Source: an uncultured bacterium (GTDB lineage Bacteria; Babelota; Babeliae; Babelales; Babelaceae). From it: 64,000 nucleotides of DNA. The stretch lies in the NCBI GenBank assembly GCA_963848965.1, contig CAWKFG010000004.1:1-64000 (forward strand), given 5' to 3'. Position numbers and translations under genes: made by a program. The notes below the pieces were generated by a model that worked only from the letters and a program-made list of their open reading frames with translations, ran no database searches and was not told the origin of the DNA. Of this stretch, positions 2,989-50,031 are shown one piece after another; positions within the stretch are counted from its first letter, which is position 1, and each line of letters begins with the position of its first letter.

Positions 2989-3063
2989 GGGCGGTTAGCT
3001 CAGTGGTAGAGCACCGGCCTTACACGCCGGCTGTCACAGGTTCGAGCCCTGTACCGCCCACCA
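2989..3063 (+). tRNA. tRNA-Val (TAC)
   Basis: Acceptor stem GGGCGGT/ACCGCCC plus ACCA, anticodon arm CCGGC-CTTACAC-GCCGG, T-loop GTTCGAG. Confidence 0.97.
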
Positions 3064-3202
3064 CATTGGAGGGAAAAGTGACTCGACAAGTAAGAAATTA
3101 GAAGTCAGAACTCAGGAAGTCGGCAGATCTGTCAGCGGAGCCGCGCACGTTCTGACTTCTTAGCTTCAAGTTCGAACTTGACGAAGATTTCACAGCCCTT
3201 GC

Positions 3203-3279
3203 GGGGTCGTAGTTCAGTTGGTTAGAACGCTGGCCTGTCACGCCAGAGGTCGCGGGTTCGAGTCCCGTCGGCCCCGCCA
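3203..3279 (+). tRNA. tRNA-Asp (GTC)
   Basis: Acceptor stem GGGGTCG/CGGCCCC plus GCCA, anticodon loop CTGTCAC, T-loop GTTCGAG. Confidence 0.97.
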
Positions 3280-13564: not shown

Positions 13565-14600
13565 TGATGGGATGGACTCCTCCTTTCTTTAATAGCGGCA
13601 TGATTGCCGCACGGGCCGGCGCCCGGAGGGGGAGGAGACATCATGGACATGCGGGTAGTGGCTGTTGATCTCGCCAAAGACGTATTCGAAATCGCATGGA
13701 CGACCGCCGTTGGGCATGTCGAGGGACGGCAGCGATTGACGCGGCCACAGTTTGAGCGATTCCTTCGGGAGCTGCCGGCCGGGACGGAGCTCGTGATGGA
13801 GGCCTGCAGCAGTGCGCACCACTGGGGTCGGCTGTGTCACTGCCTCGGGGTCGTCCCGATGCTACTGCCGAGCCAATATGTGCGCCCGTACGTCCGCCGA
13901 AACAAGACCGACCGGTCCGATGCCGAAGCGTTGCTGGAAGCGCGCCGCTGTCGGGGTATTGCCAGTGTGCCGGTGAAGACCGCGGATCAGCAAGCCCTGC
14001 AAAGCCTCCATCGCGTGCGCACCCAGTGGCAGACGGCGCGTACCGCTCGCCTGAATGTGATTCGGGGACTCCTGCGCGAGTACGGTCTGCCGCTGCGGGC
14101 GGGGGCCGTCACGATTCACCGTGTGGTGCCGGGCTTGCTGGCCGACGCGACCACGGCAATTCCGGCGCGGTTGCGGCACGTGCTGCAGAGCCTGCTGGAG
14201 GAAGTCCGCGAGTTGGAGCGGCGGGTTCGGTCGATCGATCAGCAGCTCAGCGACCTGGCCGACGCCGATCCGATCGCCCGCCGGTTGCAAACGGTGCCGG
14301 GTGTGGGCGTCATTGTCGCGACGAGCCTGCTGGGCAGCGTTCCGCACATTCACGCGTTCCGCCGCGGCCGACAGTTTGCGAGTTGGCTGGGGCTCACGCC
14401 CAGAGAAGCCTCGAGCGGCCTGCGGGTACTGGCGAGGAGGAATCAGCAAGCGGGGCGACGTCCACCTGCGGTGTGTGCTGACCCACGGCGCGCGGTCGGT
14501 GCTCTTCAATGCCCAACGACGCGCGCGCTCGCACGCCGACCGCCTGACGCCGATCCAACGCTGGGTCGTCGAGCTCGCCGCGCGACGCGGATACAACATC
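13565..14600 (+). mobile_element. IS110 family (IS1111 group) element: left end plus transposase from 13643, truncated by the junction
   Basis: TGATGGG followed by subterminal IR ATGGACTCCTCC; AVDLAK, VMEAC, KTDRSDA, VPGVG, SWLGLTP...SSG...GISKRGD motifs. Confidence 0.9.
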
Positions 14601-14603
14601 GTC

Positions 14604-17600
14604 CTACCACTCCGGCGTCACCAACCCTGACCGCAAGCGCCGCGGCGACGCGGTCGCTGACCCGGAGGAGCAGGCCGTCCCCGACGCACTCGTCGGGAAA
14701 ACTTGCTTGGCCCGCCGTCTTCGCATCGATCGGTCCCATCGAGGGCCTGCTCGACCTGGTCCACCTCGACCACCGCGTGGAGATCGCCGGCTAGCCCTGC
14801 CGGAGTACTCCACCGAGCTGACCATCGCCGCGACCCGCGCCGGTGTCGTGGACACCACGGCCGGCCAGGTCATCACCGTCGACGTTCGCATCAGCCAGGC
14901 CGACGAACTGCTGGCCACGCTGGTCGAGCGCTTCATGGTGCGTGGCCGCACCGGTGCGGCCGAGCTGGTCGCCCCGGCCTCGGTCGCGACCGACGTGCAG
15001 GACAAGCCACGCGCCCGGCTCGACCGGTTCAAGGTCACTGCGCCGCACCACATGGGTGCGTTCGCGGCCGTGAGCGGCGACCACAACCCGCTGCACACCG
15101 ACGTCCCCGCTGCCCGCCTCGCGGGCTTCGACGGCCCGATCGTCCACGGCATGTGGCTCTCCGCCGTCGCGCAGCGCGCTGCCGCGTCGGTCGGTGCCAC
15201 CCACCGCCCGCGCCCCATCCGCAGCTGGCTGGCCCGCTGGGTCGCGCCGCTGCTGCCGAACGCCGAGGTGGAGATCACCGTCGAGCGCATCGGTGTCGTC
15301 GGTGGAGACACCGTCGTCGAGGTGACCTGCCGCGCCGACGGCGAGCTGGCGATGGTCGCCGAGGCCGTCGTGGCGGCTCCGCGCACGACGTACGCCTTCC
15401 CCGGCCAGGGCATCCAGAGCCAGGGCATGGGCCTCGAGGCCCGCGCCCGCTCGGCCGCCGCCCGTGAGGTCTGGGACCGCGCCGACAGCCACACCCGCGA
15501 GGCCCTCGGCTTCTCGATCCTGGCCGTCGTCCGCGACAACCCGACCGAGCTGTGGGCCGACGGCGAGCTGCACCGCCACCCGGACGGCGTGCTGTTCCTG
15601 ACGCAGTTCACCCAGGTCGCGATGGCCACCCTCGCGGTGGCCCAGGTCGCCGAGATGCGTGAGGCCGGTGTCTTCGTCGAGGGCGCCATCACCTGCGGTC
15701 ACTCGGTGGGCGAGTACAACGCGCTCGCCGCCGTCACCGGCATCCTGCCGCTCGAGGCGCTGCTGGAGATCGTGTTCCGCCGCGGCATGGCGATGCACCA
15801 CTGGTGCCCCGCGACGCCCAGGGCCGGAGCAACTACCGCCTGGCCGCGATCCGCCCGTCGCAGATCGAGCTGGCCGACGACGACGTCGCGGCTTCGTCGG
15901 CACGATCTCGGAGCGCACCGGCGAGTTCCTCCAGATCGTCAACTACAACCTGCGCGGCTCGCAGTACGCCATCGCGGGCACCGTCGCCGGTCTCGAGGCC
16001 CTGGAGAAGGAGGTCGAGGAGCGCCGTGACGTGTCGGCGGCAAGCCGGCGTTCATCCTGGTCCCGGGCATCGACGTGCCGTTCCACTCCTCGGAGCTGCA
16101 CGCCGGCGTCGAGGACTTCCGGGCGCGGCTCGACGAGCTGCTGCCGGAGTCGATCGACCCGGCGGTCCTCGTCGGTCGCTACATCCCCAACCTGGTGCCG
16201 CGGCTGTTCACCCTCGACCGCGCCTACGTCGAGGAGGTCGCCGAGTACGTCGACTCGCCGCTCGCTCAAGCCCGCGCTCGCGGACTGGCCCACCTGGGAG
16301 GCCGACCCGGCCCGCCTCGGCCGCGCCCTGCTGATCGAGCTGCTCGCGTGGCAGTTCGCCAGCCCGGTGCGCTGGATCGAGACCCAGGACCTGCTGTTCG
16401 GCTCGCCCGAGCACGGTGGCCTGGGCATGGAGCAGTTCGTCGAGATCGGGGTGGCCAACGCCCCGACGATCGCGAACCTCGCCTCGCAGACGACCAAGCT
16501 CCCGTCGTACGACGGGGTCGCGCCGAGGATCATGAACTCCTCGCGTGACGCGGCCGTCGTCTTCGCCACGGACACGCCGATGGCCGACGACGAGCCCGAG
16601 GACGAGGCTCCCGTCGAGTCCGCAGCGGCAGCGACCGACGCACCCGCCGAGGCCAAGGCTGCTCCGGCTGCCGCGCCGACCGCGGCTGCCGGGGCCGATC
16701 GTCCCGCCGACCTGTCCTACACGGCAGCCGACGCGACGAAGACCCTGACCGCGCTGCGCACCAAGGTGCGTCCCGACCAGATCGGCACCGCCGACACGAT
16801 CGAGGCGCTGTGCGACGGCGTCTCCTCGCGTCGCAACCAGCTGCTCGTCGACCTCGGTGCCGAGCTCTCGCTCGGTGCCATCGACGGTGCCGCGGAGGCC
16901 GACTGGAAGGGTCTGTCGGCCACGGTGACCAAGCTGGCCCGCACGTACTCCCCGTTCGGCCCCGTGCTGACCGAGGCCGTGAGCGAGCAGCTTGCGCAAG
17001 TTCGCAGGTTCCGCGGGTCGAAGCCGGCGGCGATCGGCGACCGGATCAGGGACACCTGGCAGCTCGGCCCCGGCTGGGTCTCGCACGTGTCCGCCGAGCT
17101 GGCCGCGGGTCCCGCGACGGTTCGTCGACGCGCGGCGGTCTCGCTGGGCTTCGACATCGACCTTCCGACCTCAACTCCGTCGTCGACCACGCCGTGCAGG
17201 CGGTCGGCCAGGCGCAGGGCGTCCAGGTCAGCATGCCCGCCACCGGTGGTGGCGAGGGTGCGATGGTCGACTCCGCCGCGCTCAGCGAGATCACCGAGTC
17301 CATCACCGGCGCCGACGGTGTGCTCGCCTCCACGGCGCGCCACCTGCTCGGCAAGCTCGGCCTCGCCGAGACCGCGGTGACCGACGACTCCGACGACCGG
17401 ACGCAGAGCTCATCCAGCTCGTCGAGTCCGAACTCGGCTCTGACTGGGCCCGCAAGGTCGCGTCGTCCTTCGACGCGCAACCGCGCGGTCCTGCTCGACG
17501 ACCGCTGGGCCTCCGTCGCGTGAGGACTTCGCCCGCGTCTGGGTCGGCGACGAGTCGGCTCGCGAGCGCAGCTTCACCGGGGCTCGACGACGCCGCGGTG

Positions 17601-33584: not shown

Positions 33585-33659
33585 TGGCTGGGGTGGAAGG
33601 ATTCGAACCTCCGCATGCCAGGACCAAAACCTGGTGCCTTACCGCTTGGCTACACCCCA
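33585..33659 (-). tRNA. tRNA-Gln (TTG)
   Basis: Minus strand TGGGGTGTAGCCAAGCGGTAAGGCACCAGG-TTTTGGT-CCTGG...GTTCGAATCC...CACCCCAGCCA. Confidence 0.97.
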
Positions 33660-41700: not shown

Positions 41701-43437
41701 ATGATGTCCCTATGTAAGCATATATGTATGGCATTCTTTCTTCTTGTACCGCTAACTGTGTATCCCCAACAAATACCGGAAGGTTGCGGCAGGATTCCCT
41801 TTAAAAAACATGTACGGTTGCCTAAAGAGCAGATCCGCAGTTCTGTATGTGGACCTCGTACAACATTTATTCCCCGGTCGCCAGGTTCCAATACAGCACG
41901 ACGTATAGCCGGATGGTACGAATATCTCCCTGGATGTGACGATCGTGTATGGGGGAACCTATCACTCACGGTTGAATATGCTCAATCATTTAAGTCAGAA
42001 CGTATCGCTCAGTACCTCTTTGGAAGTACCTGTCTCCATTTTTCAGGAAGTCAGGTACCAAACCGCTCGACAAGAGATCTTCTTGCAGACAACTTTGGGT
42101 TGCCTACTACCTTCGTAGGAACCGTGTGCTTTAAACCTAAAATTAAAAATGTTATTGTCGATCTTATGTTTCACATAGGACTTGATGAATGGCATGAAGG
42201 ACTCTATTTTAAAACCTATTTCCCTATTGTCAACGCTCGCTGGGATATAGGACTACACTGTAACGAAATAAACAATCAATCACGTACTACATTACCAACA
42301 TTCCCGCCATGCTATATGGATACTGCTACATCTCCTGCAGTACAAAACATTCGAGAAGCACTTTCAGGAACTGCTACCTTCGGTAACGAAGCAGTGCCCA
42401 TTATGTTCGGCGAATTTGCATGTGACCACGTACACAAAACTGGTATAGGAGATATCGAGATGATTCTCGGATGGAATACTCTTCTTACTCCCACTGCTCA
42501 TGCAGGGCCGTATATCATCACCGTGGTCCCTACAAGTAATAAGCCGAACGGCACCGTCGTGTTTGAACCTCTACTGGGTAACGGACATTTATGGGAACTC
42601 GGAGCAGGAGCTTCTGCACACTATACCTTCTTCCAAAGAGGATGTCATACTGCAGGCCTCTATTTTGAAGGGCATGTTACGCACCAATTTAAGGATTTTC
42701 AAGTACGATCATTTGATCTGAAAAAGCATGGACCACTCAGCCGCTATCTTCTTCTTAAAGAGTTCGACGAAAATAACCAATATAATAATAACCTCGTCAA
42801 TACTATAGACTTTGCTACTCGCTCAGCTCGCGTTGGGGGCAGCTTTAAAGTAGATGCTTCTCTTAAACTCGCTTATTTCCATGGTGGACTAGGCTTTGAT
42901 ATCGGTTACAATATCTATGCACGAAGCCGTGAATCGCTCTGCATAGATCGATTTCTCTTCCCTTCAGATTTCAACAATGACCGCCTAGGCATAAAAGGAA
43001 CTGAAGGAGTATGTGCACGTGTCTTTAATACAAACACTAATACACTGACCAACGATACAGTACCCCTTAACTCTACACAAAGTAATGCTACTATACGACA
43101 ACCAGGCACCGTCGATAATCCGCAACCTATTACCGACCTGGCGCCCGGCCTCGTTGCTATTACTTGGGATAGCCCACTCGATCGTACCCAACTTAAACAA
43201 GCATTCAACTCTAATCCGCCGGTCCTCATCTCAGTTAACGAGCTCAGCCGACGCAGCGGTGCAGTACCAGCACAGCTTACACACAAAATCTTTGCTCATC
43301 TGAGCTATGTAGCACTCGACTGCTGCTGGGAACCACAATTTGGCTTCGGTGCCGAAGCTGAATTCGATGGCCGCTCCAAGTTCCTCAGTAGCCTCAACCA
43401 ATGGGGCATCTGGGTCAAAGGCACCCTATCATACTGA
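41701..43437 (+). CDS. Cys-rich secreted putative outer-membrane beta-barrel protein, paralog 1
   Basis: Signal peptide; family motifs FIPRS.G.NTAR, LLADNFGL, RYLLLKEF, DIGYNIY, GIKGTEG, THKIF, NQWGIWVKGTLSY. Confidence 0.8.
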   Translation: MMSLCKHICMAFFLLVPLTVYPQQIPEGCGRIPFKKHVRLPKEQIRSSVCGPRTTFIPRSPGSNTARRIAGWYEYLPGCDDRVWGNLSLTVEYAQSFKSERIAQYLFGSTCLHFSGSQVPNRSTRDLLADNFGLPTTFVGTVCFKPKIKNVIVDLMFHIGLDEWHEGLYFKTYFPIVNARWDIGLHCNEINNQSRTTLPTFPPCYMDTATSPAVQNIREALSGTATFGNEAVPIMFGEFACDHVHKTGIGDIEMILGWNTLLTPTAHAGPYIITVVPTSNKPNGTVVFEPLLGNGHLWELGAGASAHYTFFQRGCHTAGLYFEGHVTHQFKDFQVRSFDLKKHGPLSRYLLLKEFDENNQYNNNLVNTIDFATRSARVGGSFKVDASLKLAYFHGGLGFDIGYNIYARSRESLCIDRFLFPSDFNNDRLGIKGTEGVCARVFNTNTNTLTNDTVPLNSTQSNATIRQPGTVDNPQPITDLAPGLVAITWDSPLDRTQLKQAFNSNPPVLISVNELSRRSGAVPAQLTHKIFAHLSYVALDCCWEPQFGFGAEAEFDGRSKFLSSLNQWGIWVKGTLSY

Positions 43438-43444
43438 TATCCAA

Positions 43445-43477
43445 AGAGCTCTGCACCCTGCAGAGCTCTCTTTCTTT
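43445..43477 (+). terminator. Rho-independent terminator
   Basis: AGAGCTCTGCA-CCC-TGCAGAGCTCT followed by CTTTCTTT. Confidence 0.8.
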
Positions 43478-43859
43478 AGGGGCGCTGCCCCTATAACCCC
43501 GCTGGGGTCTTAACCCCAGACCCCTTTTACTTTCGTTCTTTTTCTGCGTTAAAAAACGCTCAGCGTTTTTTAACAATAGCAGTCCCTTCGGGAATCTCCA
43601 TCAGAGGTGGAACACACCTCTGCTGATAACACTCTGTTTACAGAACTATTGTTGGTATGAAATACCAAAGAATAAAACGTAAGTCAGCAACGGGCAACCA
43701 GGGAGTTCCCCTGGTTGCTTGACTTCGCGGAGCGACTGCTATTGCAAAAAATCGGTACGATTTTTTGCTTTAAAAGACAAGCGAGGAGCTTTAGCTCTGA
43801 AGCTATAAAGTGGGTTGCAAGGGTGTGCCCTTGCCGGGGTCTTAGGGGCAGAGCCCCTA
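43477..43859. other. 383-bp pseudo-palindromic multi-hairpin non-coding element with 25-bp terminal inverted repeats
   Basis: TIRs TAGGGGCGCTGCCCCTATAACCCCG and (reverse complement) TAGGGGCTCTGCCCCTAAGACCCCG, 22/25; inner 11-bp IR 43574-43584/43734-43744; about ten local hairpins. Confidence 0.9.
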
Positions 43860-43966
43860 CCAGCTAGTTAAGAGAAAGCAAATTGGAGATTCACGTAAGA
43901 TCAGCAAAGTGGTAGACTAGGGCACGATACTCAAAAAGAAGCAACACCAACAAAGGGGGTCCGCTC

Positions 43967-45958
43967 ATGAAGCGCTCTGTTAGACATCTTGTCAGTGCAG
44001 TACTGATTGCAGGAACTATTCAAGCAGAAAGCCAGTTTGTCTTTGTGCGTGGCGACACAGTAGAGCCGTGTGGCGACTCTGTGTTGCCCTGTGTCGTGCA
44101 GGATATCTGCACAACGTGTGGTACCAAGTCGTGCATCTCCTGCGCAAAATGTACGTCGCAGTGTGCCCCTTGTAAGCGTCAGAATGGACTCTGTAATACA
44201 GGATGTTTTACCTGCAGCGTTTGCTCGACACGGCTGGGTATCGAAAGTAATGGCATCTGTGTCCAGTGCAATAAGGGTGGCAAATTACCAGATGGTAGGC
44301 TTGGGACCAAGACATGTAAGCAAGAGTGTACTACAACGTGCAATACTGTACGATCTATTTTTATTCCAAGGTCTGTAGGAGCTAATACAGCAAGAGAACT
44401 TGCAGGTTGGCAAGAGTTTATCCATAGATGGTCTCCTGGGAGAAATTATGTGACGGTTGCTCATAGTTTAGGTTATTCGAGGTCCTTTGATCCTGAACGT
44501 ATTGCACGGTACCTCTTTAGTGACTGTACACTGATTTTTTCTGGTAGCCAAGTCAGAGAGAGAAGAGATTGTGAGTTGCTGGCAGATAATTTTGGGTTAT
44601 CTCCGAGTTTTAGAGGACAACTGCGTGTGAGTCCGGTTATCGACAATGTCTTTTTTGATACACAGATCTTTGTAGGGCTTGACGAATGGCTCTGCGGTCT
44701 CTATGTAAGAGCCCATGCTCCGCTAGTGCATACGAGGTGGGACCTGAGGATGCACGAGAAGGTAGAAGAGCAAGAGTGTCCGCCCTTTCCTGCTTGTTAT
44801 ATGGGCCCTGATGAAGCAAAGGCAACTTGTAGCATTGTAAGGGCATTGAGTGGCACCTTTAGATTTGGAGATATGCAAGAACGATGGAAATTTGGCAAAT
44901 TTGCAGGTTGTGGCCTTTCAAAGACGGGGCTAGCAGATATTGATCTTATTGTAGGGTGGGACTTCTTAAAATGCGAGAATTATCATATAGGTATATTTGG
45001 ATTAGTGGTGGCACCAACGGGAAATAAGCCTAAAGGCGAATTTATTTTTGAGCCGGTTATAGGTAACGCAAAGCATGTTGAGCTGGGTGCTGGACTCTCG
45101 GGACATCTGGTTTTGTGGCAGGAAGGGCTTGATCAGTCATTGAGCATTTATCTTGAAGGTAATATAACGCATATGTTCAAAAATAGACAAGTACGTTCGT
45201 TTGATTTGTGTAGACAAGGGCCTTTAAGTAGATATTTGCTTTTAAAAGAATTTAGAAGAGAAGGTGAAGAGCTTATACCTACAGGAAGAATAATCAATGG
45301 TATCAACTTTGTAACTCGGGAAATAGAGACGTGTGTTCCAGTAAAAGGAGACGTAAGTGTAAAGCTTTCTTTGAGAATACCGTGCATCGCAATTGATCTA
45401 GGATATAATTTCTATGGCCATGCGCAAGAGCGGATAAAGTTTTGTAGAGCAGGAGGTGAAAGTACTTTTGGCATTAAAGGAACTGAAGGAACCTGTGCTC
45501 TTGAATATCAAACAGTGGGCACTCAACAACCATTGTCTTTTGGTTCTCTTGTAAAAAAGATACCGCTTAATGCGACACAGAGTAATGCAACTATTACAAG
45601 TGCAGGCACTACCGATAATGCAAAGAAAGTTGCAGTAAATTCTCCTGAAGATATTGCAGTAACTGCATTTAGTAGGCAAAGCGGCTTAATTGTAGGGCCT
45701 GATATTCAAGAAGCTTTTGCTTCCAATCCTCCGGTATTGCTCTCTGATAAAGATCTTAATAAAGATTCTGGTGCTGCTGGCCCAACAGCAACTCATAAGG
45801 TTTTTGGCTATATTGGTTATACGTTTGAAGATGCATGCAGATGGTATATCCCGTATGTTGGAGTAGGTGGTGAATTTGAAGTTGATGCACTTGCTTGTAA
45901 TGAACGAACGAGTCTTAATCAGTGGAGCTTGTGGATCAAAGGTGGTATCTCATTTTAG
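43967..45958 (+). CDS. Cys-rich putative outer-membrane protein, paralog 2, with a CxxC-rich N-terminal extension
   Basis: Same family motifs; ends NQWSLWIKGGISF. Confidence 0.8.
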   Translation: MKRSVRHLVSAVLIAGTIQAESQFVFVRGDTVEPCGDSVLPCVVQDICTTCGTKSCISCAKCTSQCAPCKRQNGLCNTGCFTCSVCSTRLGIESNGICVQCNKGGKLPDGRLGTKTCKQECTTTCNTVRSIFIPRSVGANTARELAGWQEFIHRWSPGRNYVTVAHSLGYSRSFDPERIARYLFSDCTLIFSGSQVRERRDCELLADNFGLSPSFRGQLRVSPVIDNVFFDTQIFVGLDEWLCGLYVRAHAPLVHTRWDLRMHEKVEEQECPPFPACYMGPDEAKATCSIVRALSGTFRFGDMQERWKFGKFAGCGLSKTGLADIDLIVGWDFLKCENYHIGIFGLVVAPTGNKPKGEFIFEPVIGNAKHVELGAGLSGHLVLWQEGLDQSLSIYLEGNITHMFKNRQVRSFDLCRQGPLSRYLLLKEFRREGEELIPTGRIINGINFVTREIETCVPVKGDVSVKLSLRIPCIAIDLGYNFYGHAQERIKFCRAGGESTFGIKGTEGTCALEYQTVGTQQPLSFGSLVKKIPLNATQSNATITSAGTTDNAKKVAVNSPEDIAVTAFSRQSGLIVGPDIQEAFASNPPVLLSDKDLNKDSGAAGPTATHKVFGYIGYTFEDACRWYIPYVGVGGEFEVDALACNERTSLNQWSLWIKGGISF

Positions 45959-46147
45959 AGAGGGGTTTATATAAACCCCCTCTGTTCTTGTTGACAATAA
46001 AGCTTAAACCGTATTTTTCGCTTCATCGGGCAGATTACTGTCTAGCATGTCTATGGATAAACTTTTATTCTTTACTCTTTAAAGCTTCTCTTCTTTTAAA
46101 AACCTGATAAGCTATCGGGAAGTATGAGGTTTAAAAAAGGAGAATTT

Positions 46148-48091
46148 ATGAAATACCTGTTACATATAATGCTCTGCTCTTCTCTTTTTACCAGCATGTA
46201 TGGTGCAGACAAAAAGAAGGTTGATGAGTGTAATCGTGCATGCCCTGAAGTTATTAACCGCCGGCTTCCTCGCAATAAAACGTGTGATGTTCGTTGCTCA
46301 AATCAGTGTTTTGATTGTGGCACTACCATTTTTCTCCCTCGTTCACAAGGAGCTAATACTGCACGTGAGCTTGTCGCTTGGCAAAAACAGTTGCATACCC
46401 CCTACTATGTAGAAAACTATGTAACACTTGCTGCAACTGCTGAATATACACGATCTTTCAAAGATTGCCAACTTGCACAACGGCTCTTTTGCACCAATTG
46501 TCTTACCTTCTCAGGTAGCCAAGCTGCAAACAGAAGAAATGAGCAAGAAATTATAGCAGATTATTTTGGGTTACCTACCGATTTTAGAGGAACTCTTTCT
46601 ATTAAGCCTTTTATAGAAAACTATATAGTTGATCTTAATATGTTTTTTGGCCTTAGTGAATGGCTTCCTGGTCTCTATCTGAGAGTTCATATGCCCATTG
46701 TACATACTCGGTGGAGTCTTGGCCTTGATGAATGTTTGCCATGTGCAGATAAATTTAGGGGTTCAAATAATTTTCCTCCTTGCTATATGTTTAGCAATAC
46801 AGCTCCGGACGTACCGGTATTTACGCCAGGCAATGTAACGTGTGCTATAGAAAATGCTGTTAATCCTCTGCAGGTTTTAAATAACCCTCTTCAGCCCCAA
46901 ACTTCTGGTGCTCTACAATTTACCAATAATAATTGTACAACGCAGAGTATTCGAGAAGCATTGAGCGGCAACTTTACGTTTGGTGACATGCAAGAACGTT
47001 GGAACTTTGGACGATTTGATTTCTGTCCTCGCAAAAAAACAGGTCTCGCTGACGTTGATATTATTCTGGGTCTTGATTTTTGGCAGTCTGATTTTGGCCA
47101 TTTTGGAGCGTTTGCACAGCTTGTCGTTCCTACTGGAAACAAGCCAAAATCAAAATTTATTTTTGAACCTATTATAGGAAATGGCCGCCATCTTGAATTA
47201 GGAGGTGGTGTGAGTATGCATTGGTCTCTGTTCAGTGATCATTGTACCGGAGGACGTAATTTGGGTCTTTATATTGAAGGAAATGTAACCCACTTGTTTA
47301 CTAATGACCAAATTCGTTCATTCGATTTTAGACGAAACGGTCTTTTAAGTAGGTATATACTTCTTAAAGAGTTTGATATTAATAATAGGTATCTTGGTAG
47401 AACTATTAATGCTATTAATTTTGCTACTCGTAATGCTGATGTCTCTATTCGATATAAGGTAGATTTTTCTGCTAAACTTGCATTTGCTCTAGGAGGATGG
47501 AATATAGATCTTGGTTATAACATTTATGCACGAGATCGTGAATGTGTTTGTATAAAAACGGAATGTCCGTGTGACATCGATCAACGACGCTTTGGCATTA
47601 AAGGAATTGAAGGAGTATGCTGTGACAACTTTATGATAATGGACGGTATGGTTATGCCAATACCACCCAATGAAAGCGCTCCTACAAAGTTAGTCAATGC
47701 AACGCAACCAGGTGCTACGATGTTTAATGCAGTACTGCCAACAAGCGGTCCAGTACCATCAGCTACTGCAGAAGAAGTATGTCTTGGTTTTAACAGTAAA
47801 GAGATTGGACAGCAGATGATCCCCGTTGCCGATCTTACTCCTGAAAATGGTTTCATTATTGCAAGAAATGAGCCAGTGCGGATTATTTCTTGTAGAGATT
47901 TAGATCCAAGCTCTGCAGCACAATGCAGTATCCTTACTCATAAAGTTTTTGGTCATTGGGGATATATATGGTACAACTCCTGTTACCATCCTCATTTAGG
48001 CATTGGTGCAGAATTTGAATTTAATGGAAAGAAACCGGAGAGTGGACTTAATCAATGGGGTGTATGGCTCAAAGGTGGTATAACTTTCTAA
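46148..48091 (+). CDS. Cys-rich putative outer-membrane protein, paralog 3
   Basis: RBS AGGAG; RSQGANTAREL; ends NQWGVWLKGGITF. Confidence 0.8.
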   Translation: MKYLLHIMLCSSLFTSMYGADKKKVDECNRACPEVINRRLPRNKTCDVRCSNQCFDCGTTIFLPRSQGANTARELVAWQKQLHTPYYVENYVTLAATAEYTRSFKDCQLAQRLFCTNCLTFSGSQAANRRNEQEIIADYFGLPTDFRGTLSIKPFIENYIVDLNMFFGLSEWLPGLYLRVHMPIVHTRWSLGLDECLPCADKFRGSNNFPPCYMFSNTAPDVPVFTPGNVTCAIENAVNPLQVLNNPLQPQTSGALQFTNNNCTTQSIREALSGNFTFGDMQERWNFGRFDFCPRKKTGLADVDIILGLDFWQSDFGHFGAFAQLVVPTGNKPKSKFIFEPIIGNGRHLELGGGVSMHWSLFSDHCTGGRNLGLYIEGNVTHLFTNDQIRSFDFRRNGLLSRYILLKEFDINNRYLGRTINAINFATRNADVSIRYKVDFSAKLAFALGGWNIDLGYNIYARDRECVCIKTECPCDIDQRRFGIKGIEGVCCDNFMIMDGMVMPIPPNESAPTKLVNATQPGATMFNAVLPTSGPVPSATAEEVCLGFNSKEIGQQMIPVADLTPENGFIIARNEPVRIISCRDLDPSSAAQCSILTHKVFGHWGYIWYNSCYHPHLGIGAEFEFNGKKPESGLNQWGVWLKGGITF

Positions 48092-48195
48092 ATACGTTAC
48101 TTTTGGTATTGCCATCTCATTATCTTTTGTCTACATTATATAAAACAATTAAGTGGCAGTTGTTTTTGAATCTTATAACAAAAAAAGGAGTACCT

Positions 48196-50031
48196 GTGAA
48201 ACGAGTTCTTTCTTCAATCGTGTATATCTCCTTATTGCTTAGTGCAACGGGAGCTACTGCACGAAATGAGAACAATACAAAGCGATGTAATGATAATTTT
48301 TGTGATGTTCGTACGGCAGTACACTTCCGTTCGCAAGGCGCTAATACTGCACGCGAACTCGTAGGATGGCAATGGGAGCTTAATAAACCTCTTATGTGCG
48401 AATATTATGGTTCTGGATATATCGCCTTTGAATACCAACGTTCATTTAAACCAGAACATCTTGCTCGCGCCTTTTTTGGGTCAACTGCACTGCGTTTTGC
48501 AGGAAGTTTAGTACCTGATAGGCAAAGCAATGAACTACTTGCAGAAAATTTTGGACTCTCAAGAACGTTCAGAGGAAGTATCCATTTCTGTCCGAGTATT
48601 GAGAACTTTATTGTAGATCTCGGTTTCTATTTAGGTCTTGATGCCTGGGTTCAAGGACTTTATTTTAGAGCACATGCTCCCTTTGTACATGCTCGATGGA
48701 AACTTGGAGCAACACAAGTACGTAATAACGAAAATGGTGCAGGAAATAGAAAACCAACATTTGCTCCATGTTTTGTAGGAGAAGAGAGCGATCAGGCCGC
48801 ACAAACTATTGAACAAGCGCTGAGTGGCAATTTCCTTTTTGGAGATTTAAAGACTCGGTGGTGTGCAGGCAAGTTTGATTTTTGTAAACGTACGAAAAAT
48901 GGACTTGCAGATATAGATCTTATTCTTGGTTATAATTTCATTAATGATGATTGTTATCATTTGGGCTTTTATGCACAAGCTGTTATTCCGACTGCCAAAA
49001 AGCGTAAAAATGAATTTGTGTTCGATCCTCTCATCGGTAACGGAAGACACTTTGAGCTTGGTGCAGGTATTTCCGCACATACAGTATTGTGGAGTGGCGA
49101 AGATGCTAATGTAGCACTATTCCTTGAAGGAAATATTACGCATATGTTTAAATCTCGTCAATGTCGCCTCTTTGACTTGAGAAATCACGGTCCATTCAGT
49201 CGGTATCTGCTACTAAAAGAGTTTGATAGTAATGGAACTCGTCTTATTTATAATGGTAATCTTTTAAGCGCTACATGCTTTACTTCACGCGATGTTAATG
49301 TAAGTGTAGATGTAAAAGCAGATTTTTCTTTAAAACTTGCTTACCGGTGGTGCGGCTTCGGTTTTGATATAGGATATAATATCTATGGTCATAGTGCAGA
49401 GACTATTGATCGTCGGTGTGACGGATGTCCAACTGGCATCGATAAAAGACGATTTGGTATCAAAGGTACTGAAAATACTTGTTGCTTCAATTTCCCTGTA
49501 GGCATAGTTTCTGAAAATGATCAAGAAATTCCTACAATATTTCCTGAAGGAGCACCTTTTGAAGTTCCTGTACCTGAAGGATGTCCTGCTGTAGCAAGTC
49601 CTGTAGTAGTAAGAAAAGTAGCAAATAATAGTACGCAAGCAGATGCAACAGCATTTAGACCAGGAGCTACCGTAACTCCTACTATTGCCGCAAGTGCATG
49701 TACTGTATGCTTAACAAGAGCTGACAATGTTATTGCTCCTATAGCAGTTGCAGATCTTACTCCTGAAAATGGATTTATTGTAACGAATACTACACGACCA
49801 ACTATTCTTACTACAAATGACCTTAACTTATGCTCTGGTGAAGCTCTTTCAGTGCTTACTCATAAAGTCTTTGGTCATATATGTTATACTTGGATGGACG
49901 AATGCGGTTGGAATCCACAACTTGGTCTTGGTGCCGAAGTTGAATTTGATGGAAAGCGGCACCGTAATGGTACAGAACGAAATGGTTTAAACCAATGGGG
50001 TATCTGGATAAAAGGTGTTATCTCCTTCTAA
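48196..50031 (+). CDS. Cys-rich putative outer-membrane protein, paralog 4
   Basis: GTG start after AGGAG; RSQGANTAREL; ends NQWGIWIKGVISF. Confidence 0.8.
   Translation: MKRVLSSIVYISLLLSATGATARNENNTKRCNDNFCDVRTAVHFRSQGANTARELVGWQWELNKPLMCEYYGSGYIAFEYQRSFKPEHLARAFFGSTALRFAGSLVPDRQSNELLAENFGLSRTFRGSIHFCPSIENFIVDLGFYLGLDAWVQGLYFRAHAPFVHARWKLGATQVRNNENGAGNRKPTFAPCFVGEESDQAAQTIEQALSGNFLFGDLKTRWCAGKFDFCKRTKNGLADIDLILGYNFINDDCYHLGFYAQAVIPTAKKRKNEFVFDPLIGNGRHFELGAGISAHTVLWSGEDANVALFLEGNITHMFKSRQCRLFDLRNHGPFSRYLLLKEFDSNGTRLIYNGNLLSATCFTSRDVNVSVDVKADFSLKLAYRWCGFGFDIGYNIYGHSAETIDRRCDGCPTGIDKRRFGIKGTENTCCFNFPVGIVSENDQEIPTIFPEGAPFEVPVPEGCPAVASPVVVRKVANNSTQADATAFRPGATVTPTIAASACTVCLTRADNVIAPIAVADLTPENGFIVTNTTRPTILTTNDLNLCSGEALSVLTHKVFGHICYTWMDECGWNPQLGLGAEVEFDGKRHRNGTERNGLNQWGIWIKGVISF

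Follow-up and report, generated by a model that had tools for sequence, protein, structure and literature searches.

In enterobacteria, BIMEs are mosaics of palindromic units and linkers arranged in a set order at gene 3′ ends, and REP sequences have reported roles in ending transcription or in shielding the 3′ ends of mRNAs. Small, non-coding and present in multiple intergenic copies, bacterial MITEs such as Correia, ERIC and RPE carry terminal inverted repeats that allow them to form a long hairpin. REPINs have a symmetric layout with invariant blocks, compensatory hairpin changes and singlet remnants (PMC3116915). Among other systems, palindrome-associated elements derived from IS200/IS605 have hairpin ends and no target duplication (PMC6006769), palindromic hairpins at poxvirus and parvovirus termini occur as flip and flop isomers (PMC8956199), and small hairpin-associated inversions occur in plastid DNA (PMC6342102). 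Searches of the literature on palindromic repeats in Dependentiae, or on MITEs combined with inversion and compensatory changes, found nothing relevant.

The window analyzed here is a 64,000-nucleotide stretch of the genome of an uncultured member of the Babelaceae, whose assembly comprises 1.73 Mb in five contigs with a GC content of 37% and an estimated completeness of 88.7%. At 43477-43859, the window contains a 383-bp non-coding, hairpin-rich element with about ten hairpins. We consider it probable that this element is one copy of a lineage-specific, nested-palindromic repeat of ~385 bp that is, or formerly was, mobile in a non-autonomous way, comparable to REPINs, BIMEs and MITEs.

The element and its relatives in the genome resemble REPINs in having symmetric inverted units that form a long hairpin, invariant blocks beside a more variable part in which changes compensate each other, dispersed extragenic copies, half-unit remnants and no visible target duplication, but at 383-406 bp they are three to five times larger than the segments of 71 and 110 bp given for REPINs (PMC3116915). 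They also differ from REPINs, which come as tens to hundreds of ~100-bp units, in occupying nine loci and not hundreds, in carrying several local hairpins in each half, in having a center that occurs flipped, and in that no RAYT/Y1 gene was found. With BIMEs they share variants built from exchangeable modules and a placement at gene 3′ ends; unlike BIMEs, to which they have no sequence relation, they lack alternating REP units and possess terminal inverted repeats and a fixed length of ~385 bp. Their small size, non-coding nature, dispersed multiple copies, terminal inverted repeats and long-hairpin fold are those of MITEs, but they show no target-site duplication, the 88.7%-complete assembly has no resident IS with matching ends, and the copies are only ~80% alike and yet structurally intact. 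Hairpin ends and the absence of target duplication also recall IS200/IS605, and the genome does have TnpB-type genes with hairpin ends; however, the ends of these TnpB elements show no sequence relationship to those of the family, a Y1 TnpA was not found, and the element is two-fold symmetric, whereas IS200/IS605 ends are asymmetric. Because defining features of each named family are thus missing, we file the element as one that works like a REPIN, BIME or MITE and not as a member of any of these families.

The layout of the window copy had been described beforehand from the letters alone (hereafter, the sequence-only reading). The sequence and a repeat finder confirmed the terminal inverted repeats with their paired TAGGGGC-NNN-GCCCCTA hairpins, the mirrored hairpins at 43502-43519 and 43817-43834, the palindromes at 43548-43574 and 43744-43768, and the core hairpins. 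A perfect 11-bp long-range stem exists as well, although its 3′ partner lies at 43735-43745 and not, as originally given, at 43734-43744. The features are as follows (forward-strand coordinates of the window).

43477..43859: the entire element, one of nine loci of the family, arranged as A (L arm, core h1..h2′, R arm)
43477..43493: terminal hairpin of the left end, TAGGGGC-GCT-GCCCCTA, forming the outer portion of the 25-nt terminal inverted repeat at 43477-43501 (repeat finder)
43502..43519: second hairpin of the left arm, CTGGGGT-CTTA-ACCCCAG; a T-rich spacer runs from it to 43547
43548..43574: hpA, 27-bp perfect palindrome GTTAAAAAACGCT-C-AGCGTTTTTTAAC with 13-nt arms (repeat finder)
43574..43584: left inverted repeat CAATAGCAGTC bounding the core (repeat finder)
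43575..43743: core, 169 bp (query positions 99-267), pseudo-palindromic about the hairpin 43652-43668
43599..43625: core hairpin h1, CATCAGAGGTG-GAACA-CACCTCTGCTG; stem covaries, center GGTGGAAC..CACC conserved
43652..43668: central hairpin TTGGTAT-GAA-ATACCAA, at the two-fold center
43694..43718: core hairpin h2, GCAACCAGGG-AGTTC-CCCTGGTTGC (repeat finder)
43735..43745: right inverted repeat GACTGCTATTG bounding the core (repeat finder)
43744..43768: hpB, 25-bp palindrome GCAAAAAATCG-GTA-CGATTTTTTGC with 11-nt arms (repeat finder)
43817..43834: second right hairpin GCAAGGG-TGTG-CCCTTGC, helix 3 of the R arm, with three pairs changed on both sides
43843..43859: terminal hairpin of the right end, TAGGGGC-AGA-GCCCCTA, forming the outer portion of the terminal inverted repeat at 43835-43859

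The element lies in a 529-bp spacer between two ORFs on the + strand (41701-43437 and 43967-45958). A terminator-like hairpin of the upstream gene, with an 11-bp stem and a T run, occupies 43445-43469, directly before the left end. The 25-nt terminal inverted repeats (43477-43501 and 43835-43859), which form hairpins and give the element sharp ends, agree at 22/25 positions (88%) and are conserved in all full copies, and the pairing of CAATAGCAGTC with GACTGCTATTG, perfect over 11 nt, extends imperfectly to 43 nt (43552-43594 with 43724-43766, 74%). Both strands folded far below their shuffled controls, which was one of the checks that the sequence-only reading had named: the + strand reached −187.4 kcal/mol as RNA, compared to −112.6 ± 5.5 for the shuffles (z −13.7), and the − strand gave a z of −12.9. 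With DNA parameters, the z was −15.4, and the whole-element folds under both RNA and DNA parameters pair the two ends of the element with each other. Mechanical ORF calling gives three frames of 50-57 aa that overlap the element, but its copies differ by 1-4-nt indels and there is therefore no conserved reading frame in the family, in keeping with the earlier view that no ORF is present. The earlier statement that there is no tmRNA signature likewise held, as ARAGORN found no tmRNA in the element and no Rfam family reached the gathering threshold there; in an E-value search of Rfam, the best E-value was 0.13, outside the element, and all scores were far below threshold. A consensus scan of 43300-44050 on both strands returned no sigma-70-like promoter. 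One DNA read run placed on 42000-45500 of the window yielded three 151-nt contigs, none of them over the element.

BLAST, segment-wise BLAST and nhmmer profiles of the L arm, core and R arm agreed on nine loci in the source genome, and none of the three methods detected further copies. A copy count had been proposed earlier, with many copies taken to suggest a MITE or REPIN, and the outcome points in that direction. The loci are as follows (contig:coordinates, the window copy being the first).

C4:43477-43859: full copy
C1:159250-159633: full copy
C1:305439-305825: full copy
C1:353753-354140: full copy
C4:477235-477623: full copy
C4:671100-671487: full copy
C4:268412-268817: complete variant in which both arms are R-type and both core halves h1-type
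C4:472152-472355: truncated copy, cut at the exact core center (the central hairpin)
C4:551528-551752: truncated copy

Complete copies measure 383-406 bp, have a GC content of 48-52% compared to 37% for the genome, and fold at −170 to −215 kcal/mol. All nine loci are intergenic and share no conserved ORF, and their neighbors are unrelated (tolB-like/ftsH, rplU, ftsY, gltX, a MutS-domain gene, an ATP-synthase subunit, transporters and ankyrin-repeat genes). Seven of the nine begin 4-84 bp past the 3′ end of a gene, the R arm faces a gene 5′ end at 7/9 loci, and in four of the five head-to-tail gene contexts transcription would reach the L arm first. Relative to the direction of replication, the arms are oriented 6 to 2 and the cores 5 to 4, which gives nothing clear, and no regular placement of the loci along the replichores was seen.

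Pairwise identity among the copies ranges from 77 to 95% for L arms, from 79 to 92% for cores and from 76 to 88% for R arms. The L, core and R segments give incongruent relationships, and the copies are therefore mosaics of exchangeable modules, namely an L or R arm and an h1 or h2 core half. At the position of the second left hairpin, other copies have CTAGGGCC/GGCCCTAG or CCAGGGG/CCCCTGG, and the terminal 26 nt exist as two alleles (GGGGC.. and GGGAC..), either of which can occupy either end. The two halves of the element are 58-61% identical in inverted orientation, compared to ~50% when shuffled, and the L profile matches reversed R arms with E-values of 9e-6 to 0.12; judged by these likenesses, the whole element is an old inverted duplication. 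The variant at C4:268412-268817 is a true palindrome that folds at −215 kcal/mol. Recent palindromization of this copy was considered and rejected, its halves being only 69% alike. No direct repeat flanks the ends of six of the seven complete copies, and the seventh (C1:353753-354140) has GCTAGC on both sides, a sequence that is itself a palindrome. Just outside the terminal hairpins, AACT(A/G)T recurs at 4-5 ends and GCTAGC or CTTAGC at 3-4 ends. Because of these recurring short motifs, the true ends of the element may lie ~9 nt further out.

While the copies drifted to ~80% identity, their hairpin stems were kept by compensatory substitutions. In the core, 12 of 54 pairs have changed on both sides and 93.1% of cells remain paired; none of 500 shuffles reached 12 (mean 4.7) and slid controls gave 1-5, in a comparison that ignores kinship among the copies. 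Four of these changed pairs belong to core helix 3 (h1). The R arm shows the same pattern, with 6/29 pairs changed on both sides, 98.3% of cells paired, no shuffle out of 500 reaching 6 (mean 1.3) and no such pair in slid controls, kinship again being ignored. For the L arm, the figure of 4/27 is a count alone, without a shuffled or slid control, and all the structures scored in this way came from the same copy sequences. The left terminal stem is one example, with GGGGC/GCCCC in some copies and GGGAC/GTCCC in others. Selection on structure, which the sequence-only reading had proposed from the single copy before it, thus gains stronger support from compensatory changes between copies. Other parts hardly vary at all: the hpA stem is identical in all six full copies, the hpB stem is nearly invariant in 10/10 R arms, and the h2 hairpin is identical in five of the six full copies, the sixth (C4:477235-477623) differing at one base.

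Depending on the copy, the ~170-bp core points one way or the other with respect to the arms. By segment BLAST, the core of each of the other five full copies is opposite to that of the window copy, at 82-93% identity. When the two truncated loci are included, two of eight readable loci have arrangement A (the window copy and C4:551528-551752) and six have arrangement B, making the window copy the minority isomer. The inversion breakpoints fall inside the flanking repeat CAATAGCAGTC/GACTGCTATTG. The inverted repeats that flank the core are 11-21 bp long; this inner repeat is perfect in two of the six full copies (window and C1:305439-305825) and imperfect over ~20 bp in the other four. The window core is closest to that of a B copy, C1:353753, with which it is 90-93% identical. 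Moreover, a derived end, GCTTGACTTCGCGGAGC, is common to both A copies, and the same B copy has it with one base changed. Since the A copies share this derived core end, one old inversion may account for both of them, and the flip is probably historical.

Both A loci lie upstream of genes of an outer-membrane-like family, at distances of 108 and 77 bp, and the six B loci lie elsewhere; by a rough post-hoc estimate, the chance of both A loci preceding such genes is ~0.002. This placement may reflect shared ancestry, target preference or function. The downstream flanks of the two A copies could not be aligned beyond the element. In the window, four tandem paralogues of this family (578-663 aa, ~40% identical) span 41701-50031 and have the features of secreted, Cys-rich, outer-membrane-like proteins with a terminal aromatic residue. 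A Pfam scan of two members gave no match. Six clear members of this protein family were counted in the genome, and each of the 40 other genomes of the taxonomic family contains matches.

We examined the corresponding spacers in relatives from other genera of the family. Of 29 relatives' loci, 22 have ftsH directly after tolB and on the same strand, with an estimated spacer of 93-217 bp in 15, 313-477 bp in three and 948-1295 bp in four; the source genome has 610 bp there, made up of a 387-bp element and 223 bp. The L, core and R profiles matched none of the ten relatives' tolB-ftsH spacers against which they were run, and among the seven shorter ones, which were folded, six had a z between −1.2 and +0.3 and one had a z of −3.1. 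At the window locus, the genes on either side of the element are themselves tandem paralogues of the outer-membrane-like family with 40% identity. Among 19 relatives' loci with the downstream gene, a clear counterpart of the upstream gene was present in two, G010 and G024, at 53-54% identity. The orthologous spacer is at most ~105 bp in G010 (~30 bp if a visible ATG is taken as the start) and a few hundred bp in G024, and the tested stretches of the two gave z values of −0.9 and −0.7, compared to −10.8 for the 529-bp spacer of the source genome. Because the orthologous spacers of relatives are short or unstructured and do not contain the element, we regard the element as an insertion.

Searches further afield were consistent with a lineage-specific family. 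BLAST found no homologue in 40 relatives or, with two candidates scored per genome, in the 260 other genomes of the phylum that were searched; a covariance model of the core found none in the genomes of 40 other members of the family, and the plasmid and phage collections searched gave none either. An exact-pattern scan of genome contigs gave two matches, both in Bacteroidales MAGs, which cover 28 core-profile positions only and lie inside apparent coding sequence. A first scan of metagenome contigs and three scans of viral contigs gave no match. The second metagenome scan returned 29 stretches, of which 24 match no profile and five have a match confined to the R profile's first 32-49 positions, corresponding to a generic A/T hairpin.

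The genome contains several mobile elements, none of which resembles the family at its ends. The pattern of the terminal hairpins is confined to copies of the family. The IS5-like element ends in AGAGCCTATC, which is unrelated to the family ends, and the same is true of the ends of the IS110 copies and the TnpB elements. Resident IS copies are 99-100% alike. In contrast, no two family copies are near-identical, and there is therefore no sign of recent movement. A search for Y1/RAYT proteins (PF01797) had no match at E ≤ 0.01 in the 88.7%-complete assembly, whereas the control search matched in 6/14 genomes; a search for a Y2 transposase also had no match, which says little, since the same search matched in none of the control genomes either. 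The recombinases found were two Xer-like tyrosine recombinases, one large serine recombinase of 486 aa and the IS110 transposases; none adjoins a copy of the family, and no small invertase was found in the genome. One gene for an RNA-guided transposase of the IS110 family (396 aa, NCBIfam NF033542) lies in the window at 13604-14794, and three more near-identical IS110 copies, of another type, are found elsewhere. The TnpB zinc-ribbon domain had eight matches, some of them fragments and one with a stop, with IS605-like hairpin ends and no Y1 TnpA found. Matches are located as follows.

C4:638627, 514783, 332362, 613811, 82606 and 753771; C1:415345: TnpB zinc-ribbon matches

If the family is a mobile repeat, as we think probable, it would have spread without target duplication by recognition of its folded palindromic ends. 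The likeliest route, which we put forward tentatively, would be one in which an enzyme acting in trans transposes the element as a folded single strand, as in REPIN/RAYT or IS200/IS605; this mobilizing enzyme would be absent or lost from the 88.7%-complete assembly. Recombination or template switching between the inverted repeats of 11-21 bp on either side of the core would have flipped it, and the stems would have persisted because either mobility or a host function, for instance a block to transcription or to exonucleases at the 3′ ends of genes, depends on the hairpins. Several observations stand against a mobile repeat: no candidate moving enzyme was found in the assembly, there is no sign of recent movement, nine loci are few for a REP or MITE family, and conservation is highest in internal parts (hpA, hpB and h2) rather than at the ends, an unusual pattern for a transposon. 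The compensatory pattern, moreover, fits a functional RNA or a protein-bound DNA structure equally well. A structured RNA family would consist of ~385-nt paralogous ncRNA genes, or of 3′-UTR elements transcribed by read-through from the gene upstream, whose hairpins might, for example, terminate transcription or protect the 3′ ends of mRNAs. Extreme folding, a raised GC content, covarying stems, the position of seven loci shortly past a gene 3′ end and the prevalence of L-first copies in head-to-tail contexts would all suit such a family. The two strands, however, fold alike, with similar alifold energies and G-U/A-C counts, and the difference between strands in each copy (−8.7 to +5.5 kcal/mol) has no consistent sign with respect to the direction of transcription. 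In addition, copies differ in how their core is oriented relative to the arms, one copy is reversed relative to its neighboring genes, no sigma-70-like promoter was found in or beside the window copy, and there is no Rfam match. The inner stems of hpA and hpB are also only 3-4 bp long, compared to 6-10-bp GC stems in most other A-tract/T-tract palindromes of this genome, and on the same ground their interpretation as ordinary bidirectional terminators was rejected. We consider a structured RNA family unlikely, and the single undescribed ncRNA gene suggested by the sequence-only reading does not agree with a multi-copy family whose strands fold alike and whose core is flipped. An origin of replication, or a site of single-strand initiation, that primes from a hairpin on each strand has only the two-fold symmetric hairpin layout in its favor and is hardly conceivable at nine loci, with the window copy (C4:43.5 kb) far from the turning points of cumulative GC skew (~C4:860 kb and ~C1:570 kb) and the element missing from the orthologous spacers of relatives; the DnaA-independent origin proposed earlier is thereby refuted. 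The other proposal of that reading, a REPIN- or MITE-like substrate of an HUH enzyme, was borne out as far as a multi-copy repeat is concerned, but no HUH enzyme was found.

The flipped core and the near-invariant palindromes beside it allow other explanations. A multi-locus invertible switch, with parallels in fimS and in the mpl promoters of Mycoplasma penetrans, would flip the ~170-bp core in vivo and thereby change the expression of the gene facing the R arm. Like an inverton, the core is bounded by inverted repeats; in addition, it is found in both orientations in different copies, the hpA and hpB palindromes beside these repeats have invariant or nearly invariant stems, as binding sites would, both A loci precede outer-membrane-like genes, and the R arm mostly faces a gene 5′ end. 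Unlike an inverton, it contains no promoter-like site in the window copy, as far as a consensus scan can tell, and no dedicated invertase was found, the recombinases present being remote from every copy. The inner repeat is unlike a shared recombinase site because it differs between copies and is perfect in only two of six; the single old inversion suggested by the derived core end (found in one B copy too) may suffice, and the neighbors of the B copies are housekeeping genes. We regard a switch of this kind as quite improbable. There is likewise only a slight chance that the copies are BIME-like sites of chromosome architecture, whose palindromes and A-tracts are bound by a nucleoid protein, gyrase or similar and which were spread and kept for that role. 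Such sites would explain why the A6/T6 stems of hpA and hpB stay nearly or wholly invariant against ~20% drift elsewhere, why 15 of the 31 A5+/stem/T5+ palindromes in the genome fall inside family elements, and why orientation is immaterial and the strands symmetric. However, no binding protein can be inferred, the loci are not regularly placed along the replichores, and a conserved host function is not indicated because the family is absent from all relatives searched. A different account of the core takes its two orientations for flip/flop isomers, produced by folded single-strand (rolling-hairpin-like) copying or resolution, or by an unrecognized enzyme acting at the A6/T6 palindromes of hpA and hpB. 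An asymmetric segment within inverted repeats that exists in two inverted-complement forms does recall the viral and plastid cases, but those are replicon ends or single loci, whereas here the forms sit in different dispersed copies, and we think this account rather doubtful. If it were true, the family would be a new kind of bacterial hairpin transposon, or a multi-locus DNA switch, in an ankyrin-rich bacterium with a small genome.

The mobile-repeat interpretation replaces that of an origin or unique ncRNA with one that can be tested. With ~20% drift and nearly every stem still paired, the family offers a clean natural case for asking what preserves bacterial palindromes, the candidates being selection on a hairpin-dependent step and hairpin-templated correction. 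The flipped core, the copy with two R arms and the half copy show that the element rearranges around its own symmetry. For annotation, it illustrates that GC-rich islands in an AT-rich genome are easily mistaken for RNA genes.

Genes for tRNA-Val, tRNA-Asp and tRNA-Gln are found in the window at 2989-3279 and 33585-33659. Elsewhere in the genome, an 11.9-kb region with an internal duplication and two IS110 copies (C1:385924-397839) lies near the gene for the large serine recombinase (C1:377109-378569) and may be an integrated mobile element.
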